Part shown: one piece after another, positions 276-3,633 of the stretch | Layout: the number at the start of each line of letters is the position of its first letter | How positions within the stretch are numbered: the stretch's first letter is position 1 | From: a virus | Lineage: Duplodnaviria > Heunggongvirae > Uroviricota > Caudoviricetes | DNA: 5,504 bases | Strand: one strand, 5' to 3' | Virus record (IMG/VR): IMGVR_UViG_2690316225_000010 | Location: 1-5,504 of that record | Program-made: the position numbers and the translations under genes | Notes under the pieces: model-generated | Database searches by the model: none | The model's input: the letters and a program-made list of their open reading frames with translations, nothing else | What the model was told of the DNA's origin: nothing

Positions 276-2567
276 ATGGGTAAAGGAAGCAGTAAGGGGC
301 ATACCCCGCGCGAAGCGAAGGACAACCTGAAGTCCACGCAGTTGCTGAGTGTGATCGATGCCATCAGCGAAGGGCCGGTTGAAGGTCCGGTGGATGGATT
401 AAAAAGCGTGCTGCTGAACAGTACGCCGGTGCTGGACAGTGAGGGGAATACCAACATCGCCGGTATCACGGTGGTGTTCCGTGCCGGTGAGCAGGAGCAG
501 ACACCGCCGGAGGGGTTTGAATCCTCCGGCTCCGAGACGGTGCTGGGTACGGAAGTGAAATATGACACGCCGATCACCCGCACCATTACGTCTGCAAACA
601 TCGACCGTCTGCGCTTTACCTTCGGCGTGCAGGCACTGGTGGAAACCACCTCAAAGGGGGACCGGAATCCGTCGGAAGTCCGCCTGCTGGTTCAGATCCA
701 GCGTAATGGTGGCTGGGTGACGGAAAAAGACATCACCATTAAGGGCAAAACCACCTCGCAGTATCTGGCCTCGGTGGTGGTGGGTAACCTGCCGCCGCGC
801 CCGTTCAATATACGGATGCGCAGGATGACGCCGGACAGCACCACAGACCAGCTGCAGAACAAAACGCTCTGGTCGTCATACACCGAAATCATCGATGTGA
901 AACAGTGCTACCCGAACACGGCACTGGTCGGCGTGCAGGTGGATTCGGAGCAGTTCGGCAGCCAGCAGGTGAGCCGTAATTATCATCTGCGCGGGCGCAT
1001 TCTGCAGGTGCCGTCGAACTATAACCCGCAGACGCGGCAATACAGCGGTATCTGGGACGGAACGTTTAAGCCAGCATACAGCAACAACATGGCCTGGTGT
1101 CTGTGGGATATGCTGACCCATCCGCGCTACGGCATGGGGAAACGTCTTGGTGCGGCGGATGTGGACAAATGGGCGCTGTATGTCATCGGCCAGCATTGCG
1201 ATCAGTCGGTGCCGGACGGTTTTGGCGGCACGGAGCCGCGCATCACCTGTAATGCGTACCTGACCACACAGCGCAAGGCGTGGGATGTGCTCAGTGATTT
1301 CTGCTCGGCGATGCGCTGTATGCCGGTATGGAACGGGCAGACGCTGACGTTCGTGCAGGACCGACCATCAGATAAGGTGTGGACCTATAACCGCAGTAAT
1401 GTGGTGATGCCGGATGATGGCGCGCCGTTCCGCTACAGCTTCAGCGCCCTGAAGGACCGCCATAATGCCGTTGAGGTGAACTGGATTGACCCGAACAACG
1501 GCTGGGAGACGGCGACAGAGCTTGTTGAAGATACGCAGGCCATTGCCCGTTACGGTCGTAATGTCACGAAGATGGATGCCTTTGGCTGTACCAGCCGGGG
1601 GCAGGCACACCGCGCCGGGCTGTGGCTGATTAAAACGGAACTGCTGGAGACGCAGACCGTGGATTTCAGCGTGGGTGCTGAAGGGCTTCGCCATGTACCG
1701 GGCGATGTTATTGAAATCTTCGATGATGACTATGCCGGTATCAGCACCGGTGGTCGCGTGCTGGCGGTGAACAGCCAGACCCGGACGCTGACGCTCGACC
1801 GTGAAATCACGCTGCCATCCTCCGGTACCACGCTGATAAGCCTGGTTGACGGAAGTGGTAATCCGGTCAGCGTGGAGGTTCAGTCCGTCACCGACGGACT
1901 TAAGGTGAAAGTGAACCGGGTTCCTGACGGCGTTGCAGAATACAGTGTGTGGGGGCTGAAGTTGCCGACGTTGCGTCAGCGCCTGTTCCGCTGTGTGAGT
2001 ATCCGTGATAACGATGACGGCACGTATGCCATCACTGCCGTGCAGCATGTACCGGAAAAAGAAGCCATCGTGGATAACGGGGCGCACTTTGACGGCGACC
2101 AGAGCGGCACGGTGAATGGTGTCACGCCGCCAGCGGTGCAGCACCTGACCGCCGAAGTCACCGCAGACAGCGGGGAATATCAGGTGCTGGCGCGCTGGGA
2201 CACGCCGAAGGTGGTGAAGGGCGTGAGCTTCCTGCTCCGTCTGACCGTAACAGCGGATGACGGCAGTGAGCGGCTGGTCAGCACGGCCCGGACGACGGAA
2301 ACCACATACCGCTTCACGCAACTGGCGCCGGGGAACTACAGGCTGACAGTCCGGGCGGTAAATGCGTGGGGGCAGCAGGGCGATCCGGCGTCGGTATCGT
2401 TCCGGATTGCCGCACCGGCAGCACCGTCGAGGATTGAGCTGACGCCGGGCTATTTTCAGATAACCGCCACGCCGCATCTTGCCGTTTATGACCCGACGGT
2501 ACAGTTTGAGTTCTGGTTCTCGGAAAAGCGGATTACCGATATCAGGAACACACGGCGGTGGAGGTGA
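276..2567 (+). CDS. J: Host specificity protein J / central tail fibre, N-terminal part (763 aa), ending 6 codons after the internal duplication junction
   Basis: ATG at 276 and TGA at 2565..2567. The translation ([34 protein letters not shown]...) is near-identical to lambda gpJ residues 1 to about 757 as I recall it. The last residues (NTRRWR*) are out-of-frame read-through into the second repeat copy, not native J sequence. Confidence 0.9.
2256..2422 (+). repeat. 167-bp perfect direct repeat, copy A (within duplicated J segment 1)
   Basis: 2256..2422 is identical base for base to 3341..3507 on manual comparison (GATGACGGCAGTGAGCGGCTGGTCAGCACGGCCCGGACG ... GCACCGGCAGC). Flanking bases differ at 2255/3340 and 2423/3508. 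Confidence 0.8.
2544..2548 (+). promoter_or_regulatory. Shine-Dalgarno-like AGGAA 9 nt upstream of GTG 2558 (candidate reinitiation site for the distal J ORF)
   Basis: AGGAA at 2544..2548, 9-nt spacer, GTG at 2558. The ORF1 stop TGA (2565..2567) overlaps the start of ORF2 (GTGGAGGTGA), an arrangement typical of translational coupling. The motif is created at the duplication junction itself. Confidence 0.3.
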
Positions 2568-3633
2568 ATTACACCGACCCGCAGAACGGCTGGCAGACCT
2601 CCACGGAACTGGTGGAAGACCCGGAAGCCATACTGCGCTACGGGCGCAACCTGCTGAAGATGGATGCGTTCGGTTGCACCAGTCGCGGTCAGGCCCACCG
2701 TGCCGGGCTGTGGGTGATAAAGACCGGACTGCTGGAAACGCAGACGGTGGATTTCACGCTCGGGTCACAGGGGCTGCGTCACACACCCGGTGACATTATT
2801 GAAATCTGTGATAACGACTATGCCGGGACCATGACCGGCGGACGTATCCTGTCCATCGATGCCGCCAGCCGCACCCTGACACTGGACCGTGAGGTGACCC
2901 TGCCGGAGACAGGTGCCGCCACGGTGAACCTGATTAACGGCAGCGGTAAGCCGGTGAGCGTGGCCATCACTGCACACCCCGCGCCGGACCGGATACAGGT
3001 CAGCACCCTGCCTGATGGTGTGGAGACATACGGTGTATGGGGACTCTCCCTGCCGTCACTGCGTCGTCGCCTGTTCCGCTGTGTCTCCATCCGGGAAAAC
3101 ACGGACGGCACCTTTGCCATCACGGCGGTGCAGCACGTACCGGAAAAGGAAGCCATCGTGGATAACGGGGCCAGCTTTGAGCCGCAGTCAGGCACCCTGA
3201 ACAGCGTCATCCCTCCGGCAGTGCAGCACCTGACGGTGGAGGTGAGCGCAGCTGACGGTCAGTATCTGGCGCAGGCGAAATGGGACACGCCGAAGGTGGT
3301 GAAGGGCGTGAGCTTTATGCTTCGCCTGACCGTGGTCGCGGATGACGGCAGTGAGCGGCTGGTCAGCACGGCCCGGACGACGGAAACCACATACCGCTTC
3401 ACGCAACTGGCGCCGGGGAACTACAGGCTGACAGTCCGGGCGGTAAATGCGTGGGGGCAGCAGGGCGATCCGGCGTCGGTATCGTTCCGGATTGCCGCAC
3501 CGGCAGCGCCGTCACAGATTGAGCTGACACCGGGCTATTTTCAGATAACAGCGGTCCCGCGTCTTGCGGTGTATGACCCGACGGTACAGTTTGAGTTCTG
3601 GTTTTCGGAGACAAAAATCGCAGACACATCTCA
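2549..3633 (+). repeat. Direct repeat copy 2 of duplicated internal J segment (~1085 nt), diverged in its 5' two-thirds and near-identical in its 3' third
   Basis: Encodes ORF2 residues 1 to about 359 ([21 protein letters not shown] ... [15 protein letters not shown]), collinear with copy 1. Both offsets (1088, 1085) leave remainder 2 when divided by 3, so copy 2 is out of frame relative to copy 1. Confidence 0.85.

Follow-up and report, generated by a model that had tools for sequence, protein, structure and literature searches.

An apparent tandem repeat in a lambdoid prophage J gene is most probably a scaffold join between two J alleles

The window analysed here, a stretch of 5,504 nt, appears to carry two adjacent copies of the central part of a lambdoid J gene, which are diverged over much of their length and identical over a shorter tract. 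We consider it highly likely that these copies are the overlapping middles of two J alleles that a scaffolder butted together over a two-base gap, and that the alleles differ by ordinary variation. The mosaic divergence between the copies is then a comparison of two alleles, because the scaffolder placed two allele pieces side by side. The underlying mosaicism of J alleles is ordinary and already known, and the apparent tandem feature is not real.

The two pieces and the gap between them

The features to which we refer are as follows, with the basis of each call in parentheses.

3..215, plus strand: tail assembly protein I gene (3' end only) of an A-type prophage, piece 1 (ORF list)
276..2546, plus strand: J allele A, 5' two-thirds, lambda J residues 1-757, end of piece 1 (match to 602687 gpJ, lambda J colinearity, Pfam)
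276-2567, plus strand: ORF1, long and on the same strand as ORF2 (ORF list)
1431..1462, plus strand: 32-nt block identical in A and B alleles, with piece 2 starting, in gene coordinates, at its 3' edge (comparison)
1461..2546, plus strand: copy 1, where allele A overlaps with allele B in gene coordinates (alignment)
2253..2422, plus strand: 170-nt tract in allele A, in the Ig_J domain, ORF1 aa 660-716, J-A nt 1978-2147 (alignment)
2547..2548, no strand: scaffold gap (NN in CYBB01000064.1, AA in the window)
2549..3631, plus strand: copy 2, the homologous part of allele B (alignment; allele also in IMG/VR loci L088-L092)
2549..4843, plus strand: J allele B, lambda J residue ~396 to stop, start of piece 2 (EH2252 gpJ match, Pfam)
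2558-4843, plus strand: ORF2, beginning with GTG at 2558, annotated CTT67932.1 (ORF list)
3338..3507, plus strand: 170-nt tract in allele B, within a 2015C-4944-type patch at 3086-3610 (mismatch maps)
4862..4881, plus strand: terminator-like hairpin between J and lom (terminator scan)
4912..5504, plus strand: 5' part of lom, B-type, Ail/Lom outer membrane protein (sequence comparison)

An exact look-up of the ORF2 protein identified the entire 5,504-bp window as contig CYBB01000064.1 of the draft assembly GCA_001283265.1; the same look-up found no occurrence of the protein outside this contig. We compared the window position by position with the public copy of the contig (L004), and 5502 of 5504 positions agreed. 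The sole two differences are at 2547 and 2548, where the record has NN and the window AA. The NN, which we noticed by listing all N runs in the fetched IMG/VR loci, falls exactly on the junction between copy 1 and copy 2. Because the window and the record differ only at these two bases, the junction is a two-base gap between assembled pieces. The preliminary description had treated the copies as a repeat in one DNA molecule, and this does not survive: the bases that separate them are ambiguous in the public record, and the junction is nowhere read there as continuous sequence, as it would be in a tandem duplication. Ambiguous bases placed right at a non-colinear join are what a scaffold misjoin leaves behind.

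Around the gap, the window reads ...GATATCAGG AA CACACGGCGG..., whereas the A-type gene continues past 2546 as CAGGTTGAAACC, and the equivalent sequence of the B-type gene upstream of 2549 is ...GAAGGACCGC (also given as ...CTGAAGGACCGC). It appears that N was turned into A during preparation of the window, which created a seeming junction, a frameshift and an artificial ORF end. The apparent +2 frameshift and the ORF1 tail RNTRRWR* both stem from N written as A. Two ideas built on these letters were dropped: that the AA is filler at an illegitimate junction formed by deletion between tandem prophages, given that 2547-2548 are NN, and that -1 frameshifting at GAAAAG (2523-2528) fuses both ORFs, the basis for which disappeared with the NN.

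The junction was spanned in none of 5,426 complete E. coli genomes, in which an 80-nt probe matched solely as two halves. Searching genome, viral and metagenome collections for the exact junction pattern also returned no match, but the pattern held the artefactual AA, and we therefore give that result no weight. With a scaffold gap at its junction and no counterpart among the complete genomes, the tandem duplication by recombination that had been proposed is not upheld, and independent assemblies, in which such a junction should recur, offer neither the join nor the ORF2 protein. The join also falls inside domains, cutting Ig_J_second at profile position 44/105 and restarting in Phage-tail_3 at about 70/164, and it is therefore not a modular domain duplication.

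Both pieces are readily recognised as J. ORF1 is colinear with phage lambda J over residues 1-759 (alignment to PDB 8iyk), and ORF2 aligns with lambda J from residue 399 onward. Pfam finds FNIII-A_GpJ, Phage-tail_3, Ig_J and a truncated Ig_J_second on piece 1, and Phage-tail_3 (from profile position 70), Ig_J, Ig_J_second, Phage_Tail_Tip and Ig_GpJ_C on piece 2. The colinear match and the J-specific domains identify a lambda-type tip attachment protein J, and its location between tail assembly gene I and lom is that of J in a lambdoid tail operon. The window thus resembles phage lambda J (PDB 8iyk/8iyl/8k35) in Pfam domain set and in the gene order I-J-lom. Unlike lambda J, the J of the window is split into two ORFs, broken at the NN gap and overlapping by 362 aa in gene coordinates; the intact J proteins matched by each piece are 1137-1160 aa long. 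Neither the split nor the 362-aa overlap is a trait of the protein itself; both result from the scaffold join together with the change of N to A.

Origins of the pieces and of the join

Each piece has its own close relatives. Positions 1-2546 are identical at 2545 of 2546 nucleotides to a locus of E. coli 602687 with an intact gpJ, and the match ends at 2546. Over 2549-5504, the window matches intact gpJ and lom of EHEC-type prophages, with 99.0% identity to those of EH2252; of the 34 differences between EH2252 and piece 2, 30 are clustered in 3148-3516 and 4 lie outside. No position in 3086-3610 differs from the J of 2015C-4944, which is intact, and from about 2950 piece 2 also matches DEC9B, whose J is truncated. 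The suggestion in the preliminary description that the copies represent different J alleles is well supported by these comparisons, as the nearest relative of copy 1 is 602687 and those of copy 2 are EH2252 and, for the patch, 2015C-4944/DEC9B. Copies made by tandem duplication would be closer to each other than to alleles elsewhere; these are 79% identical to each other, yet 99-100% identical to different intact alleles elsewhere.

We note several features of these relatives. Piece 2 is itself a mosaic, with an EH2252-like backbone and the 2015C-4944-type patch at 3086-3610. The J gene of DEC9B (E. coli, complete genome; L006 3337-5244) lacks the N-terminus and directly follows a C40 peptidase (K-like) gene; here a J allele is genuinely truncated, and the genome is a finished one. 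The prophage with the closest A-type J (L002 12114-14067) carries nleH and cif downstream of its tail fibre genes, and the prophage with the closest B-type J (L003 10752-14813) carries NleG-family and espW effectors in the corresponding place. These genes are type III effector cargo, which suggests that the source isolate was EPEC/EHEC-like.

The start of piece 2 bears on how the join arose. In gene coordinates it lies at the 3' edge of the 32-nt block shared by A and B alleles (1431..1462), which is a likely branch point of the assembly graph. There are only 11 A/B identity blocks of at least 25 nt in the 3.4-kb gene, and a piece would start within 2 nt of the edge of such a block with a chance of about 1.6%. 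L148, an independent draft contig, comes to its end at the very nucleotide at which piece 2 starts; the scaffold L144 has a single 'n' (position 1500) at that nucleotide, with an inverted J fragment before it; and the A-type draft contigs L025 and L021 end 6 nt and 42 nt upstream of it, respectively. A piece that ends at shared sequence, at a place where drafts repeatedly end, is consistent with a misjoin, but the right end of piece 1 (2546) is without such support.

Among 160 IMG/VR loci, the only other 'tandem' J units were L133 and L144, and there was an N at every join. L133 (IMGVR_UViG_2693429523_000005) has an N at 2952; the sequence that follows returns to a point 1341 nt earlier and repeats it at 98% identity (1612-1911 versus 2953-3252); this repeat is another scaffold-made false tandem repeat in J. 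L144 (IMGVR_UViG_2695420569_000026, 1-4083) is draft-derived, has 'n' at 134, 1500 and 3793, and contains J fragments in a pseudo-tandem array, the inverted one apparently joined via the shared 11-mer CACGCCGTTAT near position 1425. In another record, two A-type J units (L041 and L054, both IMGVR_UViG_2724679539_000001, 25.5 kb) lie in opposite orientation about 14 kb apart, an arrangement that could reflect two prophages, an inversion or a misassembly. Lambdoid prophages are known to be hard to assemble from short reads (PMC4587872). The window shares with scaffolder-made false tandem duplications the N at the join, pieces that are colinear with intact genes elsewhere and piece ends at shared-sequence boundaries, a pattern also seen in L133 and L144. 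It departs from the usual case in that its pieces come from different alleles (79% identical) and not from one locus.

The following course of events would account for the window. The isolate would be represented by a short-read draft E. coli genome containing at least two lambdoid prophages. One of these would have supplied piece 1, comprising the last part of gene I and 2271 nt from the start of an A-type, lambda-like J allele, and the other piece 2, comprising a B-type, EHEC-prophage-like J allele from nt ~1186 to its end, followed by lom. Read pairs in the shared stretch (the 170-nt tract and its 87-90% identical flanks) may have linked the pieces at a negative distance. At 79% identity, the overlap of ~1.09 kb in gene coordinates would not have been merged, and the pieces would instead have been butted with the minimal gap NN. 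The J alleles themselves are patchworks, built up as lambdoid phages and prophages recombined homologously in the past, and these two inherited the same 170-nt patch in the Ig-like domain.

An alternative that we judge improbable is that the adjacency is real: a hybrid, broken J produced by an illegitimate join, such as a deletion between neighbouring prophages in the same orientation, with the NN standing for uncalled bases or a tiny gap. A run of two Ns could in principle be a small real gap or two uncalled bases, and degraded J genes are known in complete genomes, as the DEC9B gene without its N-terminus illustrates. Tandem prophages and recombination between prophages are documented in E. 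coli O157 (PMC2669165), and the contig look-up returned 'samples_with_this_contig: 2'; if the two are independent isolates, the artefact would have to be reproducible or the structure real. Set against this, the non-colinear join coincides exactly with the N, contigs of other drafts recurrently break at the nucleotide where piece 2 starts, the complete genomes lack the junction, and the join interrupts domains.

We assign only a slim chance to one form of this idea, namely that the NN hides a true adjacency in a hybrid prophage whose J carries two diverged copies of its central module. If the adjacency were true, 1085 nt would be lost through one RecA-type crossover within the 170-bp tract, and what remained would be an intact chimeric J of 1160 aa, in frame, with an A-type hub half and a B-type receptor half; the window would then have captured an exchange of host-range modules at an intermediate stage. 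Such a crossover product is predicted to be open and in frame, and UTME-12 has a natural intact allele with an A-left/B-middle layout like that of the predicted chimera.

The 170-nt tract and the mosaicism of J alleles

We also compared the two copies along their length. They measure 1086 and 1083 nt, a net indel of 3 nt, and the aligned unit (1467-2524 versus 2555-3609) is 79% identical overall. In 60-nt windows, identity is 63-88% before 2258 and 100% over 2258 to 2407, and the non-uniform identity that had been reported is therefore confirmed. The proteins are 75% identical overall and 67% identical for 1461-2195; the overall value and the indel agree with the earlier estimates of roughly three-quarters and 3 nt. 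The perfect identity, described as 167 bp, exists as an exact run and is slightly longer: the longest exact run is 170 nt (2253-2422 = 3338-3507). The chance of a run of this length is ~1e-15 at 79% identity and ~5e-8 at 88%.

One reading offered in the preliminary description was a homogenised 3' part. The flank downstream of the tract, 2423-2546, is diverged again (80% aa identity), and the tract is therefore an island. Between the copies, dS is 1.32 for 1461-2195, 0 for the tract (46 synonymous sites) and 1.04 for 2423-2546, a profile that indicates a recombination patch and not selection. We also considered the tract as a universally conserved island, possibly under selection at the DNA level, and rejected this, as pi in the tract is 0.21, as high as elsewhere (148 unique units). 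The tract is 95-100% conserved in 121 phage records, but such a search finds only alleles that have the tract.

The same exact 170-nt run is common to the intact J genes of 602687 and 2015C-4944, two unrelated complete genomes. Because these genes already carry the identity, local gene conversion is not needed to produce it. Furthermore, at 3169-3190, within the patch at 3148-3516, EH2252 resembles copy 1 more closely than copy 2 does, and copy 1 is therefore not the donor of the patch in copy 2. A tract made by conversion should be absent from the allelic relatives of each copy; instead it is found in 602687 and 2015C-4944, and likewise in L088-L092.

It is also conceivable that the identity of the tract was produced by assembly, through a collapsed repeat node or a popped bubble used in both pieces, and that the true alleles differ slightly; we regard this as quite unlikely. 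Short-read graph assemblers do collapse repeats longer than k, and EH2252-type alleles with 6 SNPs in the tract exist. Nevertheless, the tract and both of its flanks are free of mismatches to natural alleles, 602687 for piece 1 and DEC9B and 2015C-4944 for piece 2. The idea, raised in the preliminary description, that gene conversion between adjacent copies homogenised the tract in this strain is highly implausible: it can draw on EH2252, the closest full-length relative of piece 2, which has 6 SNPs inside the tract where copy 2 equals copy 1, but the patch at 3086-3610 equals intact 2015C-4944-type alleles even where these are unlike copy 1 (3169-3190, 3316-3337, 3508-3516), the copy-2 allele recurs in five IMG/VR contigs (L088-L092, among 160 loci with 148 unique unit sequences), and the adjacency that conversion presupposes is broken by the NN.

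Under the preferred reading, in which two natural alleles have been set side by side, the tract is one patch among many in a mosaic gene. Other alleles with a B-type left part switch to A-like sequence at differing points, and intact natural recombinants occur both ways: B-left/A-right in 2013C-4187 and A-left/B-right in UTME-12. The breakpoints of natural alleles vary around the tract (C_2013C4187, D_UTME12, L095-L101). A third version of the tract, ~62% identical to that of the window, is present in 59 of 73 unique B-left alleles (IMG/VR L095-L167, columns of 2253-2422). The segment encoding the Ig_J domain therefore comes in two deep types or more, which are reassorted with the flanks on either side. 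Recombination between prophages is documented in multi-lysogenic E. coli, for example in the prophage pool of O157 Sakai (PMC2669165), and the J alleles here are likewise patchworks, with left, tract and right types in several combinations. Compared with this known lambdoid mosaicism there is nothing new in kind; the window merely sets two alleles side by side. The biology that remains, also known in kind, is that J alleles have recombinant patches in common in the Ig-like domains that lie between their hub and receptor halves.

Consequences for annotation and other contents of the window

The case carries a caution. Writing two ambiguous bases as AA made a scaffold gap look like a junction with a 2-nt filler and a frameshift, and the same substitution yields an ORF of 763 aa whose tail is novel. 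A 761-aa 'putative host specificity protein', CTT67932.1, already stands in the public annotation and exists solely through this join. Pseudo-tandem J arrays also occur in other draft-derived IMG/VR entries (L133, L144), and because these show the same artefact, findings based on repeats in drafts of multi-prophage E. coli need a check for N at the joins.

A stretch of NZ_CP189657.1 identical to the end of gene I (3..215) is annotated 'tail assembly protein'; the intact A-type J of that record occupies 1494816-1498229, and a B-type J lies at 1642340-1645822 of NZ_AP027176.1. On the right, the window stops 24 nt inside a block common to every lom allele that was compared, and this contig end in shared sequence is further support for an assembly origin. 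There are two GC-rich hairpins, AAACCGCCTGCGGGCGGTTTT at 228-252 after gene I and GGGCACCTCAGGAGGTGCCT followed by a T run at 4862-4881; only the latter was called by the terminator scan. Except for this hairpin before lom, the promoter and terminator scan of the window gave nothing above shuffles; the window contains no Chi sites and has no match in Rfam. Finally, the minus strand carries an antisense ORF of 369 aa (1368-2477) that overlaps with copy 1. In copy 2, the homologous sequence is split into ORFs of 72 and 76 aa, and for this reason we think the antisense ORF is probably a by-product of GC-rich coding sequence.
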